The notes under the pieces are model-generated. The model saw nothing but the letters and a program-made list of their open reading frames with translations, searched no databases and had not been told where the DNA came from. A stretch of DNA of 64,000 bases, taken from positions 2,976,001-3,040,000 of the forward strand of contig CP182352.1 of assembly GCA_048571215.1 (NCBI GenBank), read 5' to 3'. The DNA is from Halarcobacter sp. GTDB taxonomy: Bacteria > Campylobacterota > Campylobacteria > Campylobacterales > Arcobacteraceae. The stretch's first letter is position 1; each line of letters starts with the position of its first letter. This document shows positions 20,519-55,565 of the stretch, piece by piece. Made by a program: the position numbers and the translations under genes.

Positions 20519-21514
20519 TTATTCCACATCACAAAATTCAAGTGACAATGTTTTTGGTTTTTCAACTGAATTGTTATTTAAAATATAAAGATTTTTCAAA
20601 CTCTTTAGATTTTCTATAGAGTCTGGTAAAGAATCCAAACTATTATCCTCAACATCTAATTCTTCTAATTTTTGCAACTGACCAATGTTTTCAGGCAAAG
20701 ATTCTAAACAATTAGCACTTACACTTAGGCTTGTTAAGTTTTTAAGTTTACAAATCTCTTCTGGTAGAGTTTTTAGCTCATTATTATCCAAAATCAATAT
20801 TTTTAAATCTTCCAATTTACTGACATTAAAGTCCAATGAGGTCAAAGAGTTATCACTCAAATCAAGTTTTATCAACATATCATGAGACTCTAATGACGGT
20901 AAATTTTGTAGATGATTACCCTCTAGCAACAGTGTTTCAAGCTCTTCAATCGCAGAGATTGATTTAGGCAAATATTTCAAATTATTAAATGAAAAATCTA
21001 CATAATATAAAGTATTCATCTTAGAAAATGCATCAGGTAACTCATTTAATTCATTTGTATCAAAAGATAAATACAATAATTTATTTAGCTTTTCCAAGCC
21101 CATAGACAAAGATTCAATTTTATTTGCAGCAACGGTAAGTCTAGTTAAGTTTGTCAGATTATAAATCTCTTCAGGAAGGGTTTTTAATCTATTTCCATTT
21201 AGATTTAAAATCATCAACTTTGATAGATTACCAATAGTTGAGGGAATCTCTTCTAAAAGATTATTTTCACATTGAAGATTTTTTAAATTTTTAAGTTCCC
21301 CAATAGCTTTTGGCAAAATTTTTAGTCTATTATTTGATAATTTTAGAACTGAAAGGTTTTTTAATACCCCAAAAGATTCAGGTAACTCCCTAATCTTCTT
21401 TTTTGATAAATCTAAATGGGTCATCATATTAATATCATCTATATGTGTTGAAATTGTGGAAGTTAATCCAGCTGATTTAACCCATCTAATAAAATTCTCA
21501 ATATCATTACTCAT
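20519..21514 (-). CDS. Leucine-rich repeat protein (about 12 x 23-aa LRRs)
   Basis: Repeats of LxxLxLxxNxLxxLPxxIxxL. Confidence 0.93.
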   Translation of the reverse strand: MSNDIENFIRWVKSAGLTSTISTHIDDINMMTHLDLSKKKIRELPESFGVLKNLSVLKLSNNRLKILPKAIGELKNLKNLQCENNLLEEIPSTIGNLSKLMILNLNGNRLKTLPEEIYNLTNLTRLTVAANKIESLSMGLEKLNKLLYLSFDTNELNELPDAFSKMNTLYYVDFSFNNLKYLPKSISAIEELETLLLEGNHLQNLPSLESHDMLIKLDLSDNSLTSLDFNVSKLEDLKILILDNNELKTLPEEICKLKNLTSLSVSANCLESLPENIGQLQKLEELDVEDNSLDSLPDSIENLKSLKNLYILNNNSVEKPKTLSLEFCDVE

Positions 21515-26109: not shown

Positions 26110-27351
26110 TCAATTCATTGTCATCTCAATCATTTTACCATTTAAAATTTCTGAAAATTCAACCCCATAGTTATAACACTCTTTTAACTCATTTTTTGTA
26201 GGAATTAGTTTTATCTTCATTGGATCTAATGGGGGAACTCTAAAGTTTAGAGATTTTAATCTATGAATAATCATATCCACAGCTTCGCCACTCCAACCAT
26301 AACTTCCAAAGGCACCACCTGTTTTACCCCTTTTTTCTAAGTACATCATACAAGATAGTAAATCCCAAACCGGTTTTGGTGCATCAGCGTTAATTGTAGG
26401 AGTACCTATTAGCACCCCATGACTCTCTTCAAGGATATTTATCATATTTTGTTCATCAATTGAAGCCAAATCATACACATTTGCAATAATACCATCTACA
26501 CTTTCAGCACCTTCAAAAATAGCTTCTGCCATATCTTTTGTGTTTTTGTAACTAGTTAAATAAAAAATAGATAAAACTTTGTTACCATGGGAAGTGTCTT
26601 GATAATCACTTTGACTCCATTTACGATAATATTCAAGATATTTATAAGGTTTTTGTCTTAAAATTGGACCATGAAGTGGTGCAATTATCTCAATATCCAA
26701 TTTATCATAGAGTTTTAAAGCATTTAAAACATAAGATTTAAAAGGTCTCATAATATGGTCATAATAGTATTTAAAAGCATAAAAGAAATCACTAACTTGA
26801 TCATCAAATAATCTTCTATCGTGATAATGACTTCCAAAAACATCTCCAGAAAATAAAAGACTATCTTCAACTATATATGAACTCATTGTTTCAGGCCAAT
26901 GTAAATAAGGAGTTGTTAAAAACTTGATTGTTTTATTTCCCAAAGTTATACTTTTATTTGTCCATACAGTTTCAAACTCAATATTATCTCTTTGGGTAAT
27001 TGCTTTTAACATAGCACTTGCTTGTGGAGAGATTAAAACTTTTACATCACTAGGAACTCTATTCATAAGCTCAGGAATTGCTCCTGCATGGTCTGGTTCT
27101 AGATGATGCAATACCACATACTTAATCTCATCATAAGAACATAAAGCTTCAATTTTTTTAAAAAACTCTTCTTGAAACTCTATTTTAACAGTATCAACGA
27201 TTATGACACCCTCATCAGTCTTTATCAAATAAGCATTATATGAAGATCCATTTGCAGTCTTCATAATGATATCAAAAGTTCTAATATCAGGGTCAAAGGC
27301 ACCTATAAAATAAATATCAGGTGCTATCTCTATAGGTTTGTTTGTGTCCAT
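26110..27351 (-). CDS. fprA: Flavodiiron protein (FprA, O2/NO reductase)
   Basis: GSSYNAYLI, HLEPDH, HWPE, DVFG, HG; flavodoxin domain with FGSYGWSGEA. Confidence 0.93.
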   Translation of the reverse strand: MDTNKPIEIAPDIYFIGAFDPDIRTFDIIMKTANGSSYNAYLIKTDEGVIIVDTVKIEFQEEFFKKIEALCSYDEIKYVVLHHLEPDHAGAIPELMNRVPSDVKVLISPQASAMLKAITQRDNIEFETVWTNKSITLGNKTIKFLTTPYLHWPETMSSYIVEDSLLFSGDVFGSHYHDRRLFDDQVSDFFYAFKYYYDHIMRPFKSYVLNALKLYDKLDIEIIAPLHGPILRQKPYKYLEYYRKWSQSDYQDTSHGNKVLSIFYLTSYKNTKDMAEAIFEGAESVDGIIANVYDLASIDEQNMINILEESHGVLIGTPTINADAPKPVWDLLSCMMYLEKRGKTGGAFGSYGWSGEAVDMIIHRLKSLNFRVPPLDPMKIKLIPTKNELKECYNYGVEFSEILNGKMIEMTMN

Positions 27352-27352
27352 T

Positions 27353-27712
27353 TTATTTTGCTATTAACCTTCTCATCCAAATTGGAGGATTATCTTGCAT
27401 CTTTATTAGAGAGTTTAAAACATCCTCTATTTTTTCATTTTCTTTGCTAGCTTGCATTGGAAATATCTTACAAGACTTAACCATCATCGATGCTTTTGGT
27501 CCTATTTGTTGCACATATAAAATATCAGCATCTTCAATACACTCTATTTTATATGTTAATTTATCAATCTCATCTTCTATCTCTATAGAGGAATCAACCG
27601 ACTTTACAAATTTGTAAGAATCACCTATTATCTCATATATATAAAACTCTTTACACCAACCAAAGTGTTGATTAACATAAATATTATCTTGAGATGCAAA
27701 TGCAATTTTCAT
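27353..27712 (-). CDS. NifX/NifY/NifB-family FeMo-cofactor binding protein
   Basis: MKIAFAS.D...VNQHFG, IGPKA, NPPIW. Confidence 0.85.
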   Translation of the reverse strand: MKIAFASQDNIYVNQHFGWCKEFYIYEIIGDSYKFVKSVDSSIEIEDEIDKLTYKIECIEDADILYVQQIGPKASMMVKSCKIFPMQASKENEKIEDVLNSLIKMQDNPPIWMRRLIAK

Positions 27713-28680
27713 AGTATAAATAACCTAACTTTTGGGTCTATAACTTTTTGCATAGTATCTGCAATCATAGAGTAAGTTCCAGTTGAAGCAATAGAACATC
27801 CAACACAGGCACCTTGATATGCCAGTCTTATCTCTATTTCTGGTTCATTTAAATAATCAATTAAAATCACATTTCCACCATCTTTTACCAAAATAGGTCG
27901 AATAAATCTATCTAAGGTATCATTTATAATCTCTAATTGTTTTTCTCTATCTTGTGCTCTAAAATGATCATTAAGTTCACATTGACTTGGTAACTCTTTG
28001 TCCATTCCTGTTAATTGAATATTTGCCATAGCATGACCATTTTTTGCAGCTTTTAACATACAATCAAAACCTTCTCTTACCCCATCAATATTTGTTCTAT
28101 CTTGAAGTTGCAATAAGGCCAATCTAAAAGCAGCTTGTGTATGATTTTTTCTTACTGCTCTTCTAAAATAATCTTTTGCTTTGTCCAAATCCTCTTCAAC
28201 ACCAATTTTAGTTTGATACATAAGTGCTAAATTGAAATTTGCTGAATCATTATCATACTCACTTGCTTTTTCAAACCAAGTTCTTGCAGTTTCAAAATCT
28301 TTTTCAACACCCTCACCTTTTAGATACATCAATCCAAGGTTTGCCATAGCTTGATCATTTTTAAACTTTACTTCTTCTTCCCAGATTTTTAATGCAGTTT
28401 CAAAATCTTTACTCTTATATGCTGCAAGTGCTTCTCTATGTCTCATAAATCTTCTTCCTTCTCCTGGTTTTGGTAATTCTCTTCCAGCTTTTAATTCTTT
28501 TTGTATATGCTCATACAAATATTCATAGGCTAACTCTATAGCTTCTTCATAATCCTCACTAGCAGCTTTAATATCAAAATCTAAAAACTCCACTAAAAAG
28601 GCATCTCCAACTTCGTGTTCTCCACTATAACACTCAAATGGATAATCTAAAGACTGGTAATAAGCTAAACTTTTTTCCAT
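27709..28680 (-). CDS. Fusion protein: HicB-like N-terminus + Sel1 repeats + NifU/Nfu C-terminal domain
   Basis: EEAIELA...ELKAGRELPKP; AMANLGLMYLKGEGVEKD repeats; IRPILVKDGGNV...QGACVGC. Confidence 0.85.
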   Translation of the reverse strand: MEKSLAYYQSLDYPFECYSGEHEVGDAFLVEFLDFDIKAASEDYEEAIELAYEYLYEHIQKELKAGRELPKPGEGRRFMRHREALAAYKSKDFETALKIWEEEVKFKNDQAMANLGLMYLKGEGVEKDFETARTWFEKASEYDNDSANFNLALMYQTKIGVEEDLDKAKDYFRRAVRKNHTQAAFRLALLQLQDRTNIDGVREGFDCMLKAAKNGHAMANIQLTGMDKELPSQCELNDHFRAQDREKQLEIINDTLDRFIRPILVKDGGNVILIDYLNEPEIEIRLAYQGACVGCSIASTGTYSMIADTMQKVIDPKVRLFIL

Positions 28681-29073: not shown

Positions 29074-29466
29074 CTAGTTTGAACTACACTCACAACTACC
29101 AGTTGGAGTACCTGGGTCTAATAAAGACTCATAATTTGTTAAAGTAACCTCTTTACAACTATTTGATTTAACATCATTGTAAATATCTTCAAGAGTTAAA
29201 AACACTTTTGAAGAACTATATACTTTTATTTTGTTCTCATTTAAATGTTTATACACACCTTCACCCATATGGTAAAATATTGTACTCTTTGCTCCTGCTT
29301 CAATTACATATTTCGCAGTATCAAGGCCATTTCCACACCCTTTATTTTCAATAACTGAGAAACTTCCTGATTGAGAATCTAATAGGGCAAAAAAAGATGC
29401 ATTCCCATATAAATCCGAAATTGTTGTTGATGTACTATCGCTTAATGGTATCGCTATCATTTTCAT
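29074..29466 (-). CDS. NifB/NifX-family Fe-Mo cluster-binding protein
   Basis: IAIPL, YGNASFF, MGEG, Cys-rich tail; SD AAGGAG; start at ATG 29466 or 29460. Confidence 0.8.
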   Translation of the reverse strand: MKMIAIPLSDSTSTTISDLYGNASFFALLDSQSGSFSVIENKGCGNGLDTAKYVIEAGAKSTIFYHMGEGVYKHLNENKIKVYSSSKVFLTLEDIYNDVKSNSCKEVTLTNYESLLDPGTPTGSCECSSN

Positions 29467-29492
29467 CTCCTTATTTAATATAATAAATACAT

Positions 29493-29508
29493 ATGCATAA
29501 ATTATTCC
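29493..29508 (-). promoter_or_regulatory. sigma54 promoter of the fdxN-fprA operon (GGAATAATTTATGCAT)
   Basis: GG-N10-GC. Confidence 0.8.
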
Positions 29509-29641
29509 ATTGATGGATTCTCTTTTATACAAAATATTCAAATATTCAGATTTTAATAAATATAAATAATTAATTATTTAATTTAAATCTATTATAAGTA
29601 TGATAAATGTAATTTGTTTAATTAAAAACAATAATAGTTAT

Positions 29642-37961: not shown

Positions 37962-39257
37962 ATGGAAGCACTTAGTCCCAAACCATTACAAATGAATCCT
38001 ATTAAACTTTCTCAACCAATGGGAGCTATGTTATGCTTTTTAGGTATAAAAAATTGTATGCCACTTATGCATGGTGCCCAAGGGTGTGCCTCATTTTCAA
38101 AAGTATTTTTCACAAGACATTTTAATGATCCCATTGCAGTACAAACAACAGCTGTAAATGATATAACAGCAGTTATTGATGGGGGAGATTATGCTATTAG
38201 TGAGAGTATTAAAAATATTACTAAAAAAGTTAAACCAGATTTAGTAGGACTTTTTACTACAGGTCTTACTGAAACAAAGGGTGATGATATTAGAGGTGCA
38301 TGTTTGCTTATGAAAGATATTCAAGAGATGGCATATGTAAACACTCCAGATTTTGAAGGCTCTATTGAGAGTGGATTTGCCCTTTCAATTGAAGCTGTTA
38401 TTAGTCAAATAGTTGAAAGTTCTACTGAAACTGATTCAAATAAGGCAGTAATAATCCCAAATGTTAACCTAAAACCAATAGAGGTTGAAAAGCTAAAAGA
38501 TACGGTTTCACTCTTTGGATATGAGGTTCATGCTTTACCTGATTTGAGTGACTCACTAGATGGACATCTTGGTTTAAAACAAGGAGCATTAAGTGCAGGT
38601 GGTATAACAGTTGAAGAGATTAAAAAACTTTCAACAGCTTCACTTGTTATCTCGGTTGGTTCAAGTGTAAAAAAAGCTGGGGAAAAACTTAAAGAGAAAA
38701 ATCCAAATATAAACCTTCTTCACTTTAATTCCTTAGGTGGTTTAGAAAATTGTGATGAATTTTTTAAACAATTATGCAAAATCAAAAATATTTCTAAACC
38801 CCATCCAAGCATTGTTAGATGGAGAAAAAGACTTCAAGATGCTCTACTTGATACCCATTTTGCTATTGGGAGTGCTTCTGTTATTATAGCCTTAGAGCCA
38901 GATCAAGCTTTAAGTGTAGCAAATACTATTTATGAAGCAGGGGCTAATATAAAAGCCATAATAACAACCCACAAAAACGATTTACTTGATGAGATTGATT
39001 GTGAACATCTCCAGATTGGTGACTTTGAAGATGTGGAAAAATTTATGGATAAGAGTGATGTATTAATCACAAATTTTCATGGGGAAAGATATACAAAAAA
39101 ATACAAAAAAGCGTTAATGTTAAGGGGCTTTCCTGATTATGAAGGAGTTGGTAATCAACTTAAAAATGATGTGCTTTATGAAGGAAGTGCATACATGTTG
39201 TTTGAACTTGCAAACTTAGTCAATCACCATAGATTTGGAGGTCATGATGAGCATTAA
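37962..39257 (+). CDS. nifN: Nitrogenase FeMo-cofactor scaffold NifN
   Basis: NPIKLSQPMGA, HGAQGC.SF.K..FTRHF..P...QTTA, PDLSDSLDGH, LQDALLDTHF. Confidence 0.95.
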   Translation: MEALSPKPLQMNPIKLSQPMGAMLCFLGIKNCMPLMHGAQGCASFSKVFFTRHFNDPIAVQTTAVNDITAVIDGGDYAISESIKNITKKVKPDLVGLFTTGLTETKGDDIRGACLLMKDIQEMAYVNTPDFEGSIESGFALSIEAVISQIVESSTETDSNKAVIIPNVNLKPIEVEKLKDTVSLFGYEVHALPDLSDSLDGHLGLKQGALSAGGITVEEIKKLSTASLVISVGSSVKKAGEKLKEKNPNINLLHFNSLGGLENCDEFFKQLCKIKNISKPHPSIVRWRKRLQDALLDTHFAIGSASVIIALEPDQALSVANTIYEAGANIKAIITTHKNDLLDEIDCEHLQIGDFEDVEKFMDKSDVLITNFHGERYTKKYKKALMLRGFPDYEGVGNQLKNDVLYEGSAYMLFELANLVNHHRFGGHDEH

Positions 39258-39624
39258 ATTTGAAAGACCAATAGTACCAGCTATTGGACTTGGGATGTTA
39301 AATGGTAGAACAAGATTAATAGGAATTCCAAAAGATAAGGTTCAAGTTGTAATCACTCTACCTAATATTAGGGAATTTAATGAAGATTTAAAAGATGCAA
39401 TTGATTTTTTTGAAGATAGAGCAGATGCTTTTATAATCACCTCAAGTACCCAAGAGGAGTGTGAAGCTATCTTAAAAGAGTTTAATTTAAGTGATAATCT
39501 TATCTCAAGAGAATACAAAGATTTTGGAAAAACCTTCTTAATGCTTGATGAAAATAGAGCTTTAAAAAAGTCACTAATGATAATAGATACAAATTGTCAA
39601 ATTACACATAAGGATATATTATAA
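39247..39624 (+). CDS. Degenerate Tpx/peroxiredoxin-fold protein
   Basis: DFGKTF...KSLMIID pattern; lacks PxxxTxxC; GGAG SD. Confidence 0.55.
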   Translation: MSIKFERPIVPAIGLGMLNGRTRLIGIPKDKVQVVITLPNIREFNEDLKDAIDFFEDRADAFIITSSTQEECEAILKEFNLSDNLISREYKDFGKTFLMLDENRALKKSLMIIDTNCQITHKDIL

Positions 39625-40145
39625 TGGAAGTAACATATAAAAATGAAACATACACATTAGGAAAAAAAGAAAGAAAAATTGAAACTGAAGCACCTGCTGT
39701 TAGAGTAAAAATGCTTAGTGGTGAAACAAAAGTTATTGGTATGATGGCACCTAAAACTCAAGTTTTGATCACATTTCCATGTATCAAAGCTTATAATAAT
39801 GGTTTACATAATATTTTAGAAGAGTATAAATCTAAAATCATCACATATATACTAACAAAAAGCAATGAAGAGAATATAGATAAAGTAAAAGAGGCTTACT
39901 CACTTGATGAAGGATTTATCTCAAATGAATTTAAAGATTTTTCACTTAAATTTGGAGTAAATATAAATGATGAACTTTTAGCAAAATCGATTTTTGTAGT
40001 GGATAAAGAGGGAGTTATTAAATATATTGAAATCCCATCAAATATAGAAACAAGTTTTGATTTAGATAAATTTAAAGAGCAACTTGATGAGGTTGTAAAC
40101 TTTAAACAAAAAGGGCATACTCACGAAAATTGGATGGGTGTATAA
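39624..40145 (+). CDS. Degenerate Tpx/peroxiredoxin-fold (redoxin) protein
   Basis: VTYK...L.G...I...AP; FSLKFGV...LAKSIFVVDKEGVIKYIE; lacks PxxxTxxC. Confidence 0.7.
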   Translation: MEVTYKNETYTLGKKERKIETEAPAVRVKMLSGETKVIGMMAPKTQVLITFPCIKAYNNGLHNILEEYKSKIITYILTKSNEENIDKVKEAYSLDEGFISNEFKDFSLKFGVNINDELLAKSIFVVDKEGVIKYIEIPSNIETSFDLDKFKEQLDEVVNFKQKGHTHENWMGV

Positions 40146-40594
40146 TGGCTATTTCAGATGAGCTAAGAGAATGGATTGTAGCCAATGATTATGATATTAA
40201 TGATTTAAATGTTCAAGGTAAACATGGCAATTCTGCTGTTATGAAAGCAGCAAGAGAAGGTAATGTAAAACTAGTAAAAGAACTAATTGGCTTAGGAGCA
40301 GATCTTGATTTGAAAAATGTTGATGGAAACTCAGCACTTTGGAATTCATGTTTTGCAAACTCTTATGATTGTTTTCATGCACTTATAGATTCAGGTATAG
40401 ATATTAACTCAGAAAATGTAAATGGAGTAACGGCACTTATGTACTGTGCAAGTGCAGGGAAAGAGGATTTTGTAAAACTACTAATCGATAATAAGGCAAA
40501 AACAGAAGTTGAAAATCTTGATGGATTTAAAGCAATAGATTTAGCAGTAACTCCTAAAATTTTTAAAATGCTAAAGAATGCAAGAGTTTCATAA
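40145..40594 (+). CDS. Ankyrin repeat protein
   Basis: GNSAVMKAAREG, GNSALW, GVTALMYCASAG. Confidence 0.92.
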   Translation: MAISDELREWIVANDYDINDLNVQGKHGNSAVMKAAREGNVKLVKELIGLGADLDLKNVDGNSALWNSCFANSYDCFHALIDSGIDINSENVNGVTALMYCASAGKEDFVKLLIDNKAKTEVENLDGFKAIDLAVTPKIFKMLKNARVS

Positions 40595-41834
40595 TAAAAC
40601 AAATATAACTTTAAAAAATAGCTTCAGTCAAACTCAATTTATTGATTGGAGAACTCAACCTAAAGCTTATAAAGAATATCCAAAGTTTTTTAGAAGATTT
40701 AACCTTGATGACTATGAAGAGTTAAAATTTATAAAAAACTTTGGGAAAATCACTTTTACTAAAAAATATGCCCAAGAAGAGGTAAACTTAAGAACAAATC
40801 CAAGTGCTGGTGGACTATATCCTTGTGAAGTATATATACAGATTAGGGGAATAAAAGGGGTTTTATCTGGTATTTATCATTATGAACCTCTAACAAATCA
40901 ACTTACTTTGATTCATGAGTTAAGTCTTGATGGACTTGAACCCTATTTTAAAGATTTAAAACAACAAAAATTTATTTTCTTACTTAGTTGTGCTTATTTT
41001 AGAAGCTCTTGGAAATATGAAAAAAGAGCTATAAGATATCTACTTTTAGATACAGGTCATCAAATTGCTTCTATTTATAGTGCCTTAAAACTTGCAAAAA
41101 TAGAAAATACTTTATGTTTTAATTTTGATAAAAAGCTTTTAAACAAGGATTTTGGTTTTGAAGATAGTGAATTCTTTTTATCTTCCCTTCTTAGCAGTTC
41201 ACATAAAGATTATGAATGTAAAAAAAGTTTAAGAGAAAAAATAGTTAGTGTTTCACCTTGCGATTATCAGATAAAAGAGCCTTTTATAGAAGAGTTTTAT
41301 AGAAAATCTTTAGAAAAAAGTGCAGAAAATATAAACTTAGCAAACTTTCTTAATGATTTAGATGAGGATCAACTTCAAAAAGCTATTGACAATAGGCGCT
41401 CAATAAGAGCTTTTAAAAAAGAGTCTATAAAAAAAGAGGAATATGAGTTTATAATAAAAGATATATTCGAATATGCAAAATCTTTTAACATAGAGATATA
41501 TCTAATAAACAACAATATAGAAACTATACAGAAAGGATGTTACAAAAATGTAACATTGCAAGAGAAGGGCGATTTTCAAGAGCTTGCAACAAAACTTGCA
41601 TTTAATCAAAAGCTAGCAGGGAATAGTGCCTTTACCCTAATATATACCTCAAATGAGAAAGAAAACTATATAAGAAATTATATTTTATGTGGTTTTTTAG
41701 CACATATTATTCATCTTAAAGCGACTCATCTAAAGCTTGGGTGTAGTGGCATCGGGGCATATTTTGATGACGAATGTAAAAGATTTTGCAAAACACAGAA
41801 TAATATACTTTACCTACAGGCGGTTGGAAAATGA
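40578..41834 (+). CDS. SagB/ThcOx-type tandem nitroreductase-family flavoprotein
   Basis: DW..QP...KEYP, LRTNPSAGGLYP.E, RSSWKY..RA.RY..LD.GH, RRSIR, GCSGIGAYFD. Confidence 0.88.
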   Translation: MQEFHNKTNITLKNSFSQTQFIDWRTQPKAYKEYPKFFRRFNLDDYEELKFIKNFGKITFTKKYAQEEVNLRTNPSAGGLYPCEVYIQIRGIKGVLSGIYHYEPLTNQLTLIHELSLDGLEPYFKDLKQQKFIFLLSCAYFRSSWKYEKRAIRYLLLDTGHQIASIYSALKLAKIENTLCFNFDKKLLNKDFGFEDSEFFLSSLLSSSHKDYECKKSLREKIVSVSPCDYQIKEPFIEEFYRKSLEKSAENINLANFLNDLDEDQLQKAIDNRRSIRAFKKESIKKEEYEFIIKDIFEYAKSFNIEIYLINNNIETIQKGCYKNVTLQEKGDFQELATKLAFNQKLAGNSAFTLIYTSNEKENYIRNYILCGFLAHIIHLKATHLKLGCSGIGAYFDDECKRFCKTQNNILYLQAVGK

Positions 41835-42130
41835 GTAAGGAAACATATGTAAATCTATTTAAAAAATATAACTTATACAGAAGTGATATTTATATGTTAA
41901 CCAAAATAAATACAGCAGATATATTTTTTCTCTTTGAAGATGTTTGTGAAGAGCTAGTTGAACAAAGAGCGATAAATAGACAGTTACCACCTGAGTTTAT
42001 AAACAATGCAAAACTATTTGTAGGACAAAATACTTTTATAAATGTATATTTTGCAGATATTGATAATAGAGCTTTCTTTTTAAGTGACCTTATTGATTTT
42101 TTAGCCTTGATAAGAAGTAAACAAAAATAG
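41831..42130 (+). CDS. Hypothetical protein, 99 aa
   Basis: ATGA overlap with upstream gene. Confidence 0.7.
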   Translation: MSKETYVNLFKKYNLYRSDIYMLTKINTADIFFLFEDVCEELVEQRAINRQLPPEFINNAKLFVGQNTFINVYFADIDNRAFFLSDLIDFLALIRSKQK

Positions 42131-42141
42131 TATTTGTTTAT

Positions 42142-42157
42142 GGAACAACATTTGCAT
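42142..42157 (+). promoter_or_regulatory. sigma54 promoter of nifX operon (GGAACAACATTTGCAT)
   Basis: GG-N10-GC. Confidence 0.85.
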
Positions 42158-42187: not shown

Positions 42188-42583
42188 ATGAGTAATATAA
42201 AAATAACATCGAATGATTCTACTGAAGGGTCAATCAAAGTAGCATTTGCAACTAAAGAATTAGAGATGATAGATTCTCACTTTGGAAGTGCAAAACAGTT
42301 TGCTGTTTACGACGTAAGCAAAGACTCAATTAGTTTAAGTGAAATCAGAAAAGTGGAAGAAAAAGACACTGATAAAACTGTTGCTTTACTAAGTGGTGTG
42401 GATATAGTTTACTTCACAAACATTGGTGCTATTGCAGCAGCAAAACTTATTAACTCTGGAATATTTACTATCAAATATAAAGAAGAAGTGAGTATCAAAG
42501 AGGAGCTGGATAAATTAAAAGAGATGTTAAATACTAATCCTCCACCTTTTATCAAAAAAATAATTGCAAAAAAGGCTGCATAA
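42188..42583 (+). CDS. nifX: NifX
   Basis: IKVAFAT....IDSHFGSAKQFAVY, IGAIAAA, PPPF; GAGG SD before ATG 42188. Confidence 0.85.
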   Translation: MSNIKITSNDSTEGSIKVAFATKELEMIDSHFGSAKQFAVYDVSKDSISLSEIRKVEEKDTDKTVALLSGVDIVYFTNIGAIAAAKLINSGIFTIKYKEEVSIKEELDKLKEMLNTNPPPFIKKIIAKKAA

Positions 42584-43020
42584 TGGAACACAATTTTAAA
42601 GAGATTTTTATGACTACACTTGTTGGTCAAGTAAGAGCACTAGACCAATTTGGTACTTGGGCAAATAAATCTGATGAAGATATTTTAAGTGAAAAATATG
42701 TTAAATCAAAAGAACAATTAAAAGAGATACCAATTATTGCAGATATTGATGAGATGCAAACACAAGATATTAGACTTATTTACCAAGCAGTAGCTTTAGC
42801 TTTTGAGAAGATTACAGGGATAATGTGCTCAGTAGTTATGGAGATGAGCCATGAAGGTTTTGGTAGAGTGGTTGTATATACTGATAAAATTGTATTATGC
42901 ACAAAATCGTTTAAAGATGCCCATAGATTTTCATTTAGAAGTTTTGAAAAACTAGAGGAAGAGGGAGAGAAGAACCTCGCAAAAGCGATAGAGATTTATA
43001 ACAAATATAAAAACGTATAA
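42583..43020 (+). CDS. NifX-associated nitrogen fixation protein (DUF269)
   Basis: RALD.FGTW, IPIIAD, MSHEGFGR, DAHRF.F. Confidence 0.9.
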   Translation: MEHNFKEIFMTTLVGQVRALDQFGTWANKSDEDILSEKYVKSKEQLKEIPIIADIDEMQTQDIRLIYQAVALAFEKITGIMCSVVMEMSHEGFGRVVVYTDKIVLCTKSFKDAHRFSFRSFEKLEEEGEKNLAKAIEIYNKYKNV

Positions 43021-43034
43021 GGAGAAAATAAAAA

Positions 43035-43556
43035 ATGGCAAGTGTAGGAATTTTTTGTGGAACAGCTGGTGGTACTTCTATGGTAGTTGCAGAAGCATTA
43101 GCAGAGGCATTTGAGGTAGAAGAGGATGCTTTAATAAATATGGAAGAAGATTTTGATGATATTGAACAATTTGAAGATTTTGATGTTCTATTCATCGGAA
43201 GTTCAACTTGGGGACAAGGAGATGTTCACTTTTCTTGGGTAGATGCTTTATTAGAAATGGAAGATGAAGAAGTTGATTTATCTGGAAAAACTGTTGCATT
43301 TTTTGGAGCAGGAGATTGTAAAAAACATGGAGAGCATTTTTGTTCAGCTTTAGGAAAACTTCATAAAACATTTACAGATCTTGGTGCAAAAGCTGTAGGT
43401 TTCGTAGATGCAAGTGGTTATAACTATGAATATTCATTAGCTGAAATGGATGGTAAACTTTGTGGTTTAGCAATAGACCAACACAATGAAGAAGAAAAAA
43501 CAGAAGAGAGAGTAGAAAATTGGGTCAACCAATTAAAAAAGGAAATCTCTTTATAA
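43035..43556 (+). CDS. nifF: Long-chain flavodoxin (NifF-like)
   Basis: GIFCGTAGGT, STWGQG, VAFFGAGD, GLAID. Confidence 0.88.
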   Translation: MASVGIFCGTAGGTSMVVAEALAEAFEVEEDALINMEEDFDDIEQFEDFDVLFIGSSTWGQGDVHFSWVDALLEMEDEEVDLSGKTVAFFGAGDCKKHGEHFCSALGKLHKTFTDLGAKAVGFVDASGYNYEYSLAEMDGKLCGLAIDQHNEEEKTEERVENWVNQLKKEISL

Positions 43557-43569
43557 TAAAGGATTTATA

Positions 43570-43908
43570 ATGAAATCTTTAAATGATTTTGAAGAGTGCA
43601 GAGATGCAGAAGATTTTTTCAAATTTTTTGATATTAAATTTGATCAAAGCTTAGTAAATGTAAAAAGATTCCATATGATGAAAGAGTATGGAAATCTTAT
43701 TAAAAGAGGTATGAATAATATTGAAGGTGAAGATAAAAAACTTGAGTTTTTAAAATTTTCTCTTCTTAGAGTTTATGGAGACTATGTAAATGGTCATGCA
43801 CCAAGTGCAGCAGATGTTTGGAACATGTACGAAACTGGTAAACTTGAAGGTTGTTCTTCATGTGCTCCAGCTACAGGAAGTTCTCAAGGGGGAAGCTGTG
43901 GGTGTTAA
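43570..43908 (+). CDS. nifW: Nitrogenase-stabilising protein NifW
   Basis: AEDFF.FF.I.FD...VNV.R.H...LL..Y.DY. Confidence 0.85.
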   Translation: MKSLNDFEECRDAEDFFKFFDIKFDQSLVNVKRFHMMKEYGNLIKRGMNNIEGEDKKLEFLKFSLLRVYGDYVNGHAPSAADVWNMYETGKLEGCSSCAPATGSSQGGSCGC

Positions 43909-44302
43909 TCATAAAGATATCGTTGATTCAGAAACTTTTTTACATGATAATGTAACGGCTGGTAGATCTGGAAAAGATGAAGATGAAGCAAAATTTGGTA
44001 TAGGACAAAAAGTAAAACTTATCAAAGATGTTGTAAATGATGGAACATATCCACATGCAGCTATTGGTACCCTTATGATGCCTGCTGGCTCTATTGGGTA
44101 TATCAAATCTGTTGGTGAGTTTTTACAAGTAATCAGAGTATATGAAGTTCATTTTTTTGGTGTAGTAGATACACCTGTAGAAATAGTTGGCTGTAGAGAA
44201 CATGAACTAGAAGCTATGGAAGATTACAGAGATGAAGTTGAAGAAGAACTTGAATTTATGAGAAAACATAGAGAAAAGTACTACAACAAAGAAAATAAGT
44301 AG
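43898..44302 (+). CDS. nifZ: NifZ
   Basis: F.IGQKV.....V.NDGTYP....G...G..GY...VG.FLQ...Y.VHF...VGCRE.EL; probable GTG start at 43898. Confidence 0.9.
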   Translation: MGVNHKDIVDSETFLHDNVTAGRSGKDEDEAKFGIGQKVKLIKDVVNDGTYPHAAIGTLMMPAGSIGYIKSVGEFLQVIRVYEVHFFGVVDTPVEIVGCREHELEAMEDYRDEVEEELEFMRKHREKYYNKENK

Positions 44303-44310
44303 GATTGAAT

Positions 44311-44364
44311 AAAACCAAGTCAAATGAAAGAATTCAGAAGAATTCTTTCGTATGGCTTGGTTTT
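44311..44364 (+). other. Long intergenic stem-loop (54 nt) after nifZ
   Basis: aaaaccaagtca-aat-gaaagaattc-agaa-gaattctttc-gta-tggcttggtttt. Confidence 0.7.
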
Positions 44365-44393
44365 GTTACCAATCTAAAAAAAAGGAGAAGAAT

Positions 44394-44738
44394 ATGGCAA
44401 GAGTTATTTTCATGCATTTTGATACTGCAACTGACGGTGTTTATGATGCAAAAATCGGTGAACCTATTGTTAGGTTAGCAAAAGAGAAAGGTGTTCCAGT
44501 ACCTTCAGATACTACAGATTATTCTAAAAGTTTAATTTATGTTGAGAATCTTTCAGATGAAGAACCTACAAGTTATATGGAAGATGAAGAATTAGATGTA
44601 TTAGTTGAACTTGGAGCTATTTCAAAAGAAGAGGCAGACCAATGTCAACAATTTACAATCAGCCCAAAAGTTAGAATTGCACCAATGATGTTAATCAAAG
44701 GTGATATCTTAGTTAAACCATATAAATTAAAAAAATAA
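44394..44738 (+). CDS. FeSII (Shethna protein II)-like ferredoxin-fold protein lacking cluster cysteines
   Basis: SD AAGGAG, ATG 44394; aligns by eye end to end to A. vinelandii FeSII (recalled sequence) but the CxxxxCxxC...C ligands are absent. Confidence 0.65.
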   Translation: MARVIFMHFDTATDGVYDAKIGEPIVRLAKEKGVPVPSDTTDYSKSLIYVENLSDEEPTSYMEDEELDVLVELGAISKEEADQCQQFTISPKVRIAPMMLIKGDILVKPYKLKK

Positions 44739-44747
44739 GGAAAAAAA

Positions 44748-45044
44748 ATGACAACTAGAGTAGAAATAATTAACGATTTTTTAGCAATTAATGTTAAACC
44801 AGGAAGTACAATTCAAGATGTAGTTGAAGCTTCAGGTTCAGCTTTACCATTTGGATGTAGAGATGGTGAATGTGGTACTTGTGTAGTTGAAGTTGAACAA
44901 GGTATGGAATTTTTATCTGAAATCAATGAAAAAGAAGTAAAAGTAATCAAAGAAGCATGCGCTGGAACTTGTACTGATAACACAAGACTTTCATGTCAAA
45001 TGAAAATCGTTAAACCAAACGGTGTAGTTAGAATTAAGTACTAA
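44748..45044 (+). CDS. [2Fe-2S] ferredoxin
   Basis: PFGCRDGECGTC...RLSCQ. Confidence 0.92.
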   Translation: MTTRVEIINDFLAINVKPGSTIQDVVEASGSALPFGCRDGECGTCVVEVEQGMEFLSEINEKEVKVIKEACAGTCTDNTRLSCQMKIVKPNGVVRIKY

Positions 45045-45097: not shown

Positions 45098-46348
45098 ATG
45101 GCACCAACATTAACAACATCAGTTGCTCAAAAGCAAAATTTAAATTTATCACTAAAATTGTGGCTTCCAATGCTACAATCATCTTTACAAGACCTAGAGA
45201 AACATCTAAAAAATGTATCCTATGAGAATCCATTTTTAGAAATAAAAAAACCAAAAGAATTTTATAATAATTTTATGCCACAAGGAACAAGTGGAGAGTT
45301 CATTGAATCTATGGCTTTATATGCTGAATCATTAAATGATGTGATAACTGATCAAATCTGTGCACCAAACTTTCCAACACCAAATTCACAAAAAGTTGCA
45401 TTTGAAATATTATGCGATTTAAATGAAGAGGGATATTTTGAAGGGGATATAGAAGAAATAGCCTATAATTGTGGAGTTTATAAAGAGTATGTGGAATCGA
45501 TTAGACAAAGATTTTCAAGACTTGAACCAAGTGGAGTAGGGGCTATAAATTTAGCTGAATCATTTTTATTTCAACTTGATGCTTGTGATAAACAAATAGA
45601 TGACGAACTATATAATTTTATTAAAAAAATCATAAAAGATATAGCTCATTTAGATAAATATGCAGCACATCATAGATTTGATGATGCAAAAGATGTAATA
45701 AAATACTTTAATAATCCCCCCGCAATAGATTATTTAAACACTAATATACAAGTAATCCCTGACTTCTTTGTGGAGATTGGTGAAGATATAAATATAAAAA
45801 TCAATAATGCCTATTATCCAGATATAGAGGTAAAAGATCCATTTAATTCTAAAAATGAATCAATAAAAGAGAAACTAAAAGAAGCAAGGGATTTAGTAAA
45901 CCTCTTAAATCTTAGAAAATCAACCCTATATAAGATAGTACTTTTAATTGTTGAAAAACAAATTGGATACTTTGTGGGTGGAGAGTTAAGACCTTATTCT
46001 ATGCAAGAGTTAGCAGCAGAATTAGGTTTTGCAGAATCAACAATAAGTAGGGCAGTTGCAAATAAATATATTGAATGTAGTAACCTAGGTGTTCTTCCAT
46101 TAAAACACTTCTTTACAAATGCAGTCAATAACAAAGACTTATCATCTTCACAAATAAAAAGTTATATTAAAAGTTTAGTAGATTATGAAAATAGGGAAGA
46201 GCCCTTAACAGACCAACATATATTAGATTCAATTCAAGATAAATTTGACTTAAAGATGGTTAGACGAACAATTACAAAATATAGAAAAATGCTAAATATC
46301 CCATCTTCAAAAGAGAGAAAAAAACTCTACAAAGTAGAAAATTTATAA
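45098..46348 (+). CDS. rpoN: RNA polymerase sigma-54 factor
   Basis: Region I Q/L-rich with ENPFLE; EGYF, EPSGVGA, ESTISRAVANKY, RpoN box VRRTITKYR. Confidence 0.95.
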   Translation: MAPTLTTSVAQKQNLNLSLKLWLPMLQSSLQDLEKHLKNVSYENPFLEIKKPKEFYNNFMPQGTSGEFIESMALYAESLNDVITDQICAPNFPTPNSQKVAFEILCDLNEEGYFEGDIEEIAYNCGVYKEYVESIRQRFSRLEPSGVGAINLAESFLFQLDACDKQIDDELYNFIKKIIKDIAHLDKYAAHHRFDDAKDVIKYFNNPPAIDYLNTNIQVIPDFFVEIGEDINIKINNAYYPDIEVKDPFNSKNESIKEKLKEARDLVNLLNLRKSTLYKIVLLIVEKQIGYFVGGELRPYSMQELAAELGFAESTISRAVANKYIECSNLGVLPLKHFFTNAVNNKDLSSSQIKSYIKSLVDYENREEPLTDQHILDSIQDKFDLKMVRRTITKYRKMLNIPSSKERKKLYKVENL

Positions 46349-50938: not shown

Positions 50939-52105
<1,167 letters not shown>

Positions 52106-52158
52106 GCCTAAATAAAAAATAAAATAAAACATAAAATAAAAATAAAGAAGGAGATAAT

Positions 52159-52518
52159 ATGTTTGTATGTGGATACCACTTCCCAGCTGATATGGGTAAT
52201 GATGTAAGTTTTGATAAAGTAATAGAAAAAGTTGAAGAAGGTATTGAAGCTGCAGGTAAAACTGTAACTATAACAAGTGAAACTAGAGAAGGTGTTAAAC
52301 TAGAAGAGATCTCTATCCCTGAAGGTTCTTTCTTACACACTGCATTTGTTGATTATTATACTAACACTGAATGTGCAGAAAAAGATGGTTTCAAAATGGT
52401 TTATTACACAAATAAATACCAAATCTCAGAAATTTCTAAATCAGTTGATGGTGATGCAACTAAAGCTATTTGTAAAAAATTAGATGATATGAATCTATAT
52501 AGAGTAAAAGTAGCGTAA
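52159..52518 (+). CDS. Unknown 119-aa protein between nifH and nifD
   Basis: Strong SD AAGGAG; codon usage like nifHDK; no P-II motifs. Confidence 0.85.
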   Translation: MFVCGYHFPADMGNDVSFDKVIEKVEEGIEAAGKTVTITSETREGVKLEEISIPEGSFLHTAFVDYYTNTECAEKDGFKMVYYTNKYQISEISKSVDGDATKAICKKLDDMNLYRVKVA

Positions 52519-52530
52519 GCTACCTTTACT
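52503..52530 (+). other. GNRA-capped stem-loop between the unknown ORF and nifD
   Basis: agtaaa-a-gtagc-GTAA-gctac-c-tttact. Confidence 0.6.
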
Positions 52531-52549
52531 ACCCTAAGAAGGAGAAAAT

Positions 52550-54016
52550 ATGGGACCAGAGACATTAGAGAGTCTACAAAATGAAGCTATTGAGGAAGTA
52601 CTAAGTGCTTATCCTGCAAAAGCTGCAAAAAACAGAGCAAAACACTTAGGTGTTGATGCACCAGAAGGTGTAAAAGGTGCTTGTGATAAAACTAGAAGTA
52701 ATAAACAAACTGTACCAGGAGTAATGTCGCAAAGAGGTTGTGCTTATGCGGGTTCTAAAGGGGTTGTTTGGGGACCAATTAAAGATATGATTCATATCTC
52801 ACATGGACCAATTGGATGTGGACAATATTCAAGAGGTGGGAGAAGAAACTATTATATCGGTACAACTGGTGTTGATACTTTTGTTACAATGAACTTCTCA
52901 ACTGACTTTAACGAAAAAGACATCGTATTCGGTGGAGATAAAAAACTTAAAAAAGCTTTAGAAGAAATTGATGATTTATTCCCATTAAACAATGGTATCT
53001 CAATTCAATCTGAGTGTCCAATCGGTCTAATCGGTGATGATATTCAAGCGGTTGCTAAAGTACATAAAAAAGAAACTGGTCATCAAACAATTGCTGTTTC
53101 ATGTGAAGGATTTAGAGGGGTTTCACAATCTCTTGGTCACCACATTGCAAATGACATGATTAGAGACCACGTTATGCCAGATACATCACACAGAAAAGAT
53201 TTCGAATCAACTGAATATGATGTAGCTATTATTGGGGATTATAACATCGGTGGTGATGCTTGGGCAACAAGAATCATCTTAGAAGAAATGGGATTAAGAG
53301 TAATTGCTCAATGGTCTGGGGATGCAACTTATAAAGAGTTAGCAATCGCTCCAAAAGCAAAACTTAACTTACTTCACTGTTATAGATCTATGAACTATAT
53401 TTCAAGACATATGGAACAAGAATTCGGTATACCTTGGATGGAATATAACTTCTTTGGACCAAGTAAAACAACTGAGTCTATTAGAAAAATCGCTTCATTC
53501 TTTGACGAAGCAATTCAAGAAAAAGCTGAAGCTGTTATTGCTAAATATACTGCTATGACTGATGCTGTTATTGCTAAATATAAACCTTTATTAGAGGGTA
53601 AAAAAGTTATGCTTTACGTTGGTGGATTAAGACCAAGACACGTTATTGGTGCATACGAAGATTTAGGAATGGAAGTAATCGGTACTGGTTATGAGTTCGC
53701 TCACGGTGATGATTATAAAAGAACTAAAGAAGATATTGAAAGATCTACTTTAATTTATGATGATGCTAATGAGTACGAATTAGAGCAATTCGTTAAGAAA
53801 TTGAGACCAGATTTAGTTGCTGCTGGTGTTAAAGAGAAATATGTATTCCAAAAAATGGGTCTACCATTTAGACAAATGCACTCTTGGGACTACAGTGGTC
53901 CATACCATGGATACGATGCGTTTGCAGTTTTTGCAAAAGATATGGATTTAGCTATGAATTCTCCTGTATGGGATCATACTACAGCTCCATGGGATAAAGA
54001 AGTAGAGGGAGCGTAA
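52550..54016 (+). CDS. nifD: Nitrogenase MoFe protein alpha chain
   Basis: RGCAYAG, HGPIGC, SECP, LHCYRS, GGLRPRH, QMHSWDY. Confidence 0.99.
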
Positions 54017-54017
54017 T

Positions 54018-55565
54018 ATGCAAGACGTAGAAAACATAGTAAACGGACAAAAACTATTTTTAAAACCTGAATATCAAGAAGTTTTAAAAAACAAAAAACA
54101 ATTCGAAGGTGCAATGGGTGCAATTGATACTGCCAAAGTTGATGAAATTCAAGAATGGACTAAATCTTGGGATTATAGAGAAAAGAATTTAGCAAGAGAA
54201 GCAATTACTGTTAATCCAGCTAAAGCTTGTCAACCTCTAGGTGCTGTAATGGTTGGTCTTGGTTTTGAAAACACTATGCCATATGTACATGGTTCACATG
54301 GTTGTGTTTCATACTTTAGAACTTACTTTACAAGACACTTTAAAGAACCAACTCCATGTGTTTCTGACTCAATGTCTGAATCTGCAGCGGTATTTGGTGG
54401 TTTAGCAAATATGAAGGATGGTTTAAGAAACTGTAACGCTTTATATAAGCCTGATATGATTGCAGTATCTACTACATGTATGGCAGAAGTTATCGGTGAT
54501 GACTTAAATGCATTTATTTTAGGTGCAAGAGAAGAAGCTGAAGGTGAATTAGATAATATCGAAATCCCTTATGCTCATACTCCATCATTCGTAGGTTCTC
54601 ATATTACTGGTTATGATAATATGATGAAATCTATCTTAGAGCAATTAAACCCAACTAGATCAGAAAGAGTTGAAGATGAGGAAAGAATCAATATCATTCC
54701 TGGTTTTGAACCATATTTAGGGTCTTTAAAAGAGATTAAAAATATTGCTAAAATGTTTGGTGACAAAATTGTTATGTTAGGTGACCATGAAGAGCAATGG
54801 GATACTGGAGCTGGTGAATATAAATTATATGCTGGTGGTACAACTATAGCTGATACAAAAACTGCTATCAATGCTAAAGCTACTATCTCATTACAAAAAT
54901 ATTCAACAATAGCAACTGCTAAAACTATTAAAAACAAATGGAAACAAACTTTTGAAACTTGTAATCCAATTGGTTTAAGTGGTACTGATGCTTTTGTTAT
55001 GAAACTAGCTGAATTAACTGGTAAAGAAGTTCCTGCTGAACTTAAAAACCAAAGAGCTAGACTTGTTGATGCTATGCAAGATTCTTATCCATATATGCAT
55101 GGTAAGAAAATTGCAATCTGGGGAGATCCTGACTTTTTATTAGGTATGGTTTCTTTCTTAGTTGAAATGGGAGCAATTCCAACTCATGTTGTATGTCATA
55201 ATGCACCAAGAAAAGGTTGGGAAGCAGAGATGAGAGCAATCTTAGATAAATCAAACAGATCTGACGAGTGTAACATCTGGCCAGGTAAAGATTTATGGGC
55301 ATTAAGATCATTATTATTCACAGAACCAGTTGATTTCATGATTGGTAACGTTTATGGTAAAGAACTTTACAGAGATACAAAAACTCCACTTATCAGAATT
55401 GGTTTCCCAATTTTTGATAGACATCACTTACATAGATACTCTATGAGTGGTTATGAGGGTGCAATTAACTTATTAACTTGGATTACTAATGGTGTTCTTG
55501 ACCAATTAGATGAAGAGACTAAAGATATAGGTGAAACAGATTACTTCTTTGATTCAGTAAGATAA
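54018..55565 (+). CDS. nifK: Nitrogenase MoFe protein beta chain
   Basis: NPAKACQP, HGSHGC, TTCMAEVIGDD, TPSF, GFPIFDRHH. Confidence 0.99.
   Translation: MQDVENIVNGQKLFLKPEYQEVLKNKKQFEGAMGAIDTAKVDEIQEWTKSWDYREKNLAREAITVNPAKACQPLGAVMVGLGFENTMPYVHGSHGCVSYFRTYFTRHFKEPTPCVSDSMSESAAVFGGLANMKDGLRNCNALYKPDMIAVSTTCMAEVIGDDLNAFILGAREEAEGELDNIEIPYAHTPSFVGSHITGYDNMMKSILEQLNPTRSERVEDEERINIIPGFEPYLGSLKEIKNIAKMFGDKIVMLGDHEEQWDTGAGEYKLYAGGTTIADTKTAINAKATISLQKYSTIATAKTIKNKWKQTFETCNPIGLSGTDAFVMKLAELTGKEVPAELKNQRARLVDAMQDSYPYMHGKKIAIWGDPDFLLGMVSFLVEMGAIPTHVVCHNAPRKGWEAEMRAILDKSNRSDECNIWPGKDLWALRSLLFTEPVDFMIGNVYGKELYRDTKTPLIRIGFPIFDRHHLHRYSMSGYEGAINLLTWITNGVLDQLDEETKDIGETDYFFDSVR

Follow-up and report, generated by a model that had tools for sequence, protein, structure and literature searches.

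The FeSII protein, with structures from Azotobacter vinelandii (5FFI, 8RHO, 9CU1) and A. beijerinckii (9IEY), carries a [2Fe-2S] cluster that serves as an O2 sensor. In its published description, a bond between D44 and K70 is the mark of the reduced, inactive state, residues R24 and K63 and the end of helix hN2 face NifD, and the release of the protected complex is stated as open (PMC11754109). FdxD (ferredoxin V) from R. capsulatus is implicated in the O2 protection of Mo-nitrogenase (PMC10936413, PMC6925177). FdxC (ferredoxin IV or FdC; 9I2A) from the same bacterium is reported as a monomer of -285 mV that has the flavodiiron protein FprA as an interaction partner (PMC12223475, PMC10936413). 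A ferredoxin fold in which all four metal ligands are lost occurs in C1-FDX/NUOP3 of Polytomella complex I, where the protein is a structural bridge; it is mitochondrial, adrenodoxin-derived and a fixed subunit of complex I (PMC8290278). Literature searches, largely confined to openly available papers, listed no description of an FeSII without its cluster, nor any of the gene analyzed here.

The locus of gene X

The window, i.e. the whole stretch of 64,000 nucleotides of Halarcobacter DNA that was analyzed, contains a complete nif island (nifHDK, nifE, nifN, nifB, nifV and nifQ) around a small gene annotated as 'hypothetical', which we call gene X. Its protein has no match in Pfam and NCBIfam at E 0.1. 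The features of the window are listed in Table 1.

Table 1. Position of gene X and of other features in the window.
Feature	Position	Strand	Remarks
Leucine-rich-repeat protein	20519-21514	-	nifB run; also in relatives
fprA-type flavodiiron protein	26110-27351	-	in nifB run
Sel1/TPR-NifU-domain fusion	27709-28680	-	nifB run; also in relatives
NifY/NafY-like protein	29074-29541	-	
nifN-nifX interval	39235-42130	+	129-aa and 99-aa familyless ORFs, redoxin, ankyrin protein, double nitroreductase; 9-17 of 54 related loci have these genes
sigma54-type (-24/-12) site	42141-42155	+	consensus match only; heads nifX-DUF269-fld-nifW-nifZ-X-fdxC-rpoN run
nifX	42189-42583	+	start inferred from Shine-Dalgarno site
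DUF269/NifX-associated protein	42583-43020	+	
Long-chain flavodoxin (NifF-like)	43035-43556	+	
nifW	43570-43908	+	
nifZ	43898-44302	+	GTG start inferred
Shine-Dalgarno AGGAG of gene X	44383-44387	+	similar sites upstream in 54 loci inspected
gene X	44394-44738	+	114-aa FeSII/FdxD-family protein; all four [2Fe-2S] ligands absent
fdxC-type [2Fe-2S] ferredoxin	44748-45044	+	98-aa protein; keeps the four ligands and lacks the hN2 helix; Fer2 E 2.6e-12
rpoN (sigma54)	45098-46348	+	
nifH, 119-aa ORF, nifD, nifK	51191-55565	+	presumed target nitrogenase
NifH	51191-52105	+	insert of 9-12 residues that Azotobacter NifH lacks; seen in 49/50 aligned NifH from Campylobacterota, the exception being the single divergent nitrogenase
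119-aa ORF	52159-52518	+	between nifH and nifD; no Pfam match, no usable Atlas match; tblastn match beside nifH in 48/49 Campylobacterota loci; candidate nitrogenase accessory protein

A sequence-only reading of this DNA had placed a 114-aa ORF with a ribosome binding site in a sigma54-controlled nifX operon directly before a 98-aa ferredoxin. Coordinates, AGGAG motif, sigma54-type site and Fer2 match all agree with this description. An in-frame ATG at 44352 is ruled out as the start, because the Met at 44394 is the first residue in each of the 121 family members that were aligned. The sigma54-type pattern occurs 19 times in the window, where 6.4 matches are expected, and none of 100 shuffles gave a number as high. 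Gene X is associated with Mo-nitrogenase genes as well as with sigma54-type control. A sigma54-like promoter of its own was found within 350 nt upstream in none of 54 loci; scans for sigma70 promoters and terminators remained at chance level. Two sequencing runs had small word shares, and a 212-nt contig from an RNA library is identical to gene X at a depth of about 6, which does not demonstrate transcription. By gene order, rpoN is the last gene of the run behind the sigma54-type site in all 54 loci, which suggests a positive feedback of sigma54 on its own expression.

Descent from FeSII, loss of the ligands and selection

In a sequence search of the PDB with the gene X protein alone, FeSII chains were the best matches (E 0.005-0.075). 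When a profile of 59 relatives was used, FeSII alone fell below E 0.01, with values of 4e-5 to 3e-3. Profile comparison by hhalign gave 97.6% (E 3.8e-12) for the gene X family against proteobacterial FeSII homologues and 45.7% against the FdxC family; a profile of the proteobacterial ferredoxin V/FdxD homologues in turn reaches FeSII at E 6e-48. An Atlas match to 'Ferredoxin-5' at 0.87 is a lead only.

The AlphaFold model of the protein (pLDDT 85) predicts a beta-grasp ferredoxin fold with the two N-loop helices hN1 and hN2 (residues 64-73 and 78-86). The model is closest to nitrogenase-bound FeSII (9cu1_N, from an entry released in 2025), with a Z score of 14.6, an rmsd of 2.3 over 112 residues and a TM score of 0.81; the latter heads a series of 0.81, 0.68 and 0.60. 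The Z scores are 9.8 for reduced FeSII, 10.2 for 5ffi, about 10 for the chains of oxidised free FeSII and 10.5 for FdC. A wide structure search had ranked FdC above FeSII, because the only FeSII representative in its library was 5ffi_A, an open conformer (Z 8.3). A second structural comparison over the Foldseek matches brought in nitrogenase-bound FeSII and settled this ranking. The locked-like shape may be the AlphaFold default for any member of the FeSII/FdxD family; a four-cysteine orthologue folded without an alignment reached a pLDDT of 50, which is too low for a conformer control.

The PDB matches, the profile comparison, the graded four-cysteine intermediates and the phylogenetic tree (see below) all place gene X in the FeSII sequence family. 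The product of gene X is an FeSII/FdxD-family protein, and the likeness to FeSII that was noticed in the sequence-only reading is borne out by these data.

The same reading had called the protein cysteine-less, with all four cluster cysteines replaced. The alignment with FeSII confirms that none of the four ligands (C42, C47, C50 and C102) is present. The protein is, however, not free of cysteines, since C84 occurs in 121/121 aligned proteins. The third ligand position holds Cys in 93 of the 121 family members and Ser in the protein of the window and 27 others, while the fourth is Cys in none of the 121 and P, S or Q in all 64 cluster-less loci. The protein could in principle bind a metal via other ligands (C46 where present, C84, H8 or Met) and handle metal or clusters for the maturation of NifDK. 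The retained third cysteine in many members, the invariance of H8, C84 and M98 in the 121-protein alignment and the operon neighbours NifX, NifW and NifZ, which are maturation factors, are in line with this idea. There is also a precedent in Arabidopsis C1-FDX, which binds one ion (PMC8290278). We still consider such a site very unlikely, given the Ser in the window's own protein and the fact that the former cluster loop is the most variable and fastest-changing part of the protein, with two Cys in 0/64 cluster-less sequences.

Outside the loop, the protein keeps the N-loop helices together with E66 and R94, which correspond to the E71-R99 salt bridge that holds the N-loop of FeSII and are present in 121/121 proteins. 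Such a pair is a general feature of ferredoxins. The redox latch D44-K70, on the other hand, is gone. At the K70 position all 64 cluster-less sequences have E65, as opposed to 0/25 of the close four-cysteine sequences and to Lys in 79 of 80 proteobacterial homologues; some four-cysteine orthologues have M, L or F there. M98 and M99 are also fixed in the cluster-less forms and may fill the emptied cluster site. The cluster-less proteins are acidic, with a mean net charge of -7.

These changes are not local decay. The dN/dS ratio of gene X is 0.08 (17 disjoint pairs), similar to nifZ (0.081) and nifW (0.075). For the loop the ratio rises to 0.24, compared to 0.034 for residues 56-76 and 0.028 for residues 84-110 (same pairs). 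The low overall ratio and the slow N-loop indicate that the loss of the ligands is old and that the remainder of X is under selection. This bears on the view that X is a vestige in the process of being lost, kept by its position in the operon only. Repeated deletions of X (11 changes on the tree), a truncated copy in one genome (G352) and stops in some four-cysteine copies would fit a vestige. The selection analysis, with a ratio of 0.03 in the N-loop, largely refutes it; 42 invariant columns in 59 sequences of 61-89% identity and the exchange of the allele with a four-cysteine form between close relatives also speak against it. This explanation is extremely improbable.

Seventeen proteins came back from a deep profile search. 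Some of them have all four ligands, and these lead on to the proteobacterial FdxD homologues, the next-nearest family to the four-cysteine orthologues from Campylobacterota. The latter are 55-72% identical to X and occupy the same slot (nifZ-X-fdxC-rpoN). In a tree from which the ligand columns had been dropped, 64 cluster-less rows form one clade (support 87/93, not starred), which is nested in the four-cysteine forms. X arose from four-cysteine forms at the nifZ-fdxC locus by one loss event, in which the cluster loop became shorter and decayed, the fourth ligand changed to Pro or Ser, and E65, M98 and M99 were newly fixed; the rest of X, above all the N-loop, remained under strong purifying selection. 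The tree contains a second cluster-less lineage, P0126, in which the whole cluster loop was lost, apparently independently; P0236 resembles it.

The trees of neighbouring genes show cluster-less and four-cysteine forms interleaved. In one pair of genomes (G049, cluster-less, and G448, four-cysteine) the neighbouring genes are 95% identical and X is 66% identical. No locus with both forms in tandem was found among those fetched. The two forms behave as mutually exclusive alleles, which are exchanged at one locus between close relatives, with one allele taking the place of the other. The existence of orthologues that keep the cysteines had been named beforehand as a sign of local decay. Such orthologues exist, but the decay does not: X is under strong purifying selection, forms one clade, spans several Campylobacterota families and was found in nif genomes only.

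The neighbouring ferredoxin, fprA and the distribution of X

The best PDB match of the neighbouring ferredoxin is 9I2A (R. capsulatus FdC) with E 6.7e-14, compared to 8e-5 for FeSII. Like FdC, it is a short [2Fe-2S] ferredoxin with the motif CX4CX2CXnC, and fprA is present in the nif island of the window. It differs from R. capsulatus FdxC in lying outside any operon with fprA, in its two extra cysteines and in its persistence after the loss of fprA. The sequence-only reading was therefore right that the neighbour retains its cluster ligands, but the protein is of the FdxC type and not an FeSII with a shorter insert. The extra cysteines (C71 and C75), which lie in the short insert of FdxC in this operon clade and vary between species, could possibly form a disulfide. 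A co-variation of C84 with them was rejected, as some loci hold C84 without these residues.

The original proposal was a split system, i.e. a heterodimer with FdxC as the redox sensor and X as the subunit that binds nitrogenase. The conservation of the pair in Campylobacterota, which had been suggested as a check, is seen in 54/54 loci, where X lies directly 5' of fdxC in the order nifZ, X, ferredoxin, rpoN; every cluster-less X seen had an adjoining fdxC. Furthermore, FeSII is dimeric, and X and FdxC have one fold. But four-cysteine orthologues precede the same fdxC, which means that the adjacency is ancestral and predates the loss of the ligands. After a true deletion of X, fdxC adjoins nifZ on one contig in 20/20 loci checked and in 13 earlier loci; where the deletion lies in the same operon clade, it is 83-95% identical to the copy of the window. 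The ancestral adjacency and the survival of fdxC without X argue against a split FeSII. FdxC also shows no evident change with the state of X (alignment read by eye), one four-cysteine family member (G130) is not linked to fdxC, and the neighbour has no equivalent of the hN2/R92-D93 dimer element; R. capsulatus FdC is reported to be monomeric (PMC12223475). A mutual dependence of two genes in place of one intact gene was thus not observed, and the alleles of X exclude each other. The heterodimer is in our judgment improbable, and we infer that FdxC is an ordinary neighbour rather than the missing half of X.

Of 185 candidates from a protein search, 181 are relatives. Identity to X is 71-90% among the 120 listed, and the named ones are from Campylobacterota; the 54 genome loci span Arcobacteraceae, Sulfurospirillaceae and Sulfurovaceae. 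Among 401 genomes of the phylum, 35 have a strong match to the X family, 49 have nifK and 33 have both. The two X-family genomes without a nifK match are a fragmented assembly with nifH and a genome with a decayed nif cluster. X-family genes are missing in 16/49 nifK genomes. Within the family of the window, X occurs in 58/59 genomes with fdxC. In one locus from another family (L100, G296) the whole nif cluster, X included, is fragmented. Another (L200, G451) has DUF269 and the remainder of X but lacks flavodoxin, nifW, nifZ and the first part of X between them; fprA was not found in this genome.

A close homologue of fprA is present in 129/142 genomes with an X-family gene and in 12/37 genomes without it. 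The allele type could be read for 96 of the 142 genomes; fprA is present in 50/53 with the cluster-less and 37/43 with the four-cysteine form. The three cluster-less genomes without a match are assemblies of 170-260 contigs. For this count we took 80 of 97 further fdxC genomes, the 17 others being the more fragmented assemblies of a genus that is over-sampled. The single-contig genome G273 has clean deletions of both genes at a distance of about 11 kb; in its sister G352, X is truncated and fprA is kept. Both genes are also deleted in G182, G343 and G344, and they are concordant in 10/10 members of genus g49.

These data raise the question whether X is an adaptor of the flavodiiron O2 reductase, which binds FprA or bridges FdxC and FprA and so directs electrons to O2 removal instead of contacting nitrogenase. 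The shared losses, the FdC-FprA interaction in R. capsulatus (PMC12223475) and a Campylobacterota family without the NifH contacts of FeSII are consistent with such a role. The correlation is, however, incomplete, with 12 genomes that have fprA without X and 13 that have an X-family gene without fprA, and the two genes belong to different operons at a distance of 17 kb. A kinship-aware test on a tree of 128 rows gave 9 independent pairs, of which 4.6 went the same way, 0.5 the opposite way and 3.9 showed no difference (median p 0.125). In addition, the NifY-like gene is present in 0/5 genomes without X and in 4/5 sisters, one of them with stops; the co-loss of X and fprA is therefore not specific and may reflect a general loss of accessory genes. 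Together, these results make an adaptor unlikely. X, FprA and the NifY-like protein probably constitute an accessory kit, presumably for oxygen; their joint losses are not proof of direct contact.

Nitrogenase contacts and possible mode of action

The contacts that FeSII makes with NifH are gone in X. R72 is replaced by L67, N73 by D68 and K76 by V71, and E118 and the C-terminal A122 tail are absent; the chain of X ends in a basic, variable tail. The NifH of the window keeps E69, R101, N108 and E112, among them the acidic partners of the FeSII contacts, and among 50 NifH sequences there is no fixed change tied to the loss of the cluster. The contact changes are shared by the four-cysteine forms of Campylobacterota, so that even these may not work like Azotobacter FeSII. 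The proteobacterial FdxD homologues are different, since 80/80 keep the four ligands and nearly all have K70, a basic residue 72, D93 and the acidic tail; by locus number, R. capsulatus fdxD adjoins nifH, away from fdxC. The NifD-facing positions R24, K63 and the end of hN2 correspond to near-invariant residues of X, G22/E23, T59 and C84-Q86, which are of a different kind; R24, K63 and K76 are variable among the proteobacterial homologues too. The dimer pair D93/K53 of FeSII is not kept. X thus resembles FeSII in fold, two-helix N-loop, E71-R99 pair and nif link, and lacks its ligands, latch and NifH contacts. It should for this reason not be filed as FeSII and is at most FeSII-like in action.

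The interpretation we favor, to which we give slightly less than an even chance, is that X is a metal-free pseudo-ferredoxin which works on its own and caps nitrogenase proteins with no Fe-S sensor; the partner is inferred, as several NifH-contact residues of FeSII are missing. FeSII appears to take the paddle shape only on nitrogenase, whereas X, without the cluster and the D44-K70 latch, would sit permanently in this locked shape. It would act alone, probably as a homodimer or monomer, and the MoFe protein on its NifD side, or maturing NifDK, would be a likelier target than the cluster of NifH. As part of the accessory kit for N2 fixation at low oxygen, X would be kept or dropped with FprA and the NifY-like protein, and it might be controlled by sigma54-dependent expression, the state of the partner, or C84. 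Several results favor this capping role, namely the similarity of the model to nitrogenase-bound rather than reduced FeSII, the single cluster-less clade with its low dN/dS and fixed E65, the near-invariant residues at the NifD-facing positions, and the fact that all 35 strong matches come from genomes with nif genes or, in one case, from a nif cluster in decay. X is also the only FeSII-family gene in the genome of the window, and its association with fprA includes clean co-deletions. An alternative in the sequence-only reading, a cluster-independent protein associated with nitrogenase, is likewise supported by the profile, structure, tree and selection data. NUOP3, a distant fold relative, may by analogy be a precedent for how X works.

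The capping role has its difficulties. If it stayed locked for good, such a clamp would inhibit nitrogenase, and its release would have to be under some other control. The residues that face NifD are conserved but different, in an acidic protein; the NifH contacts are gone while NifH has kept its side of them and shows no matching change; and the dimer pair is lost. The locked shape may come from the prediction method, the link with FprA is not significant on independent pairs, and about a third of the nifK genomes do without the family.

A rival explanation is a thiol switch, in which O2-triggered protection is kept and sensing has moved to C84, by an inter-subunit disulfide or by oxidation near the dimer or NifD contact. 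C84 is present in 76/77 distinct sequences of cluster-less loci and lies at the end of hN2, a part that is directed toward the dimer interface and the FeMo cofactor in FeSII (PMC11754109); X moreover tends to be lost together with an O2-reducing enzyme. But the residue is older than the loss of the cluster (24/25 close four-cysteine sequences have it), it is absent in one diverged X (L096) and has no Cys counterpart in P0126 and P0236, and a single Cys is weak evidence. We regard a switch of this kind as unlikely.

In its widest form the capping role leads to a picture that is possible but less likely than not: an iron-free FeSII allele, fixed in the nitrogenase-bound shape, would pass between Campylobacterota diazotrophs as one gene copy replaces another, take over the task of the Fe-S allele and protect nitrogenase from oxygen under the control of a single thiol or of the state of nitrogenase, as part of a kit with a flavodiiron O2 reductase. 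If this is true, close relatives with either allele, such as the pair described above, are a natural experiment on the purpose of the FeSII cluster. The cluster would have been discarded and the paddle kept under strong selection, which separates binding from sensing. With both alleles at one locus, isogenic swaps are simple to design, and a protector that needs no Fe-S assembly would be useful for moving nitrogenase into other hosts. Annotated as 'hypothetical' and without a Pfam or NCBIfam match, gene X goes unseen when microaerophilic diazotrophs from sediments and the sea are surveyed for their ways of coping with oxygen. Our results suggest that the FeSII shield family has a second, iron-independent working mode.
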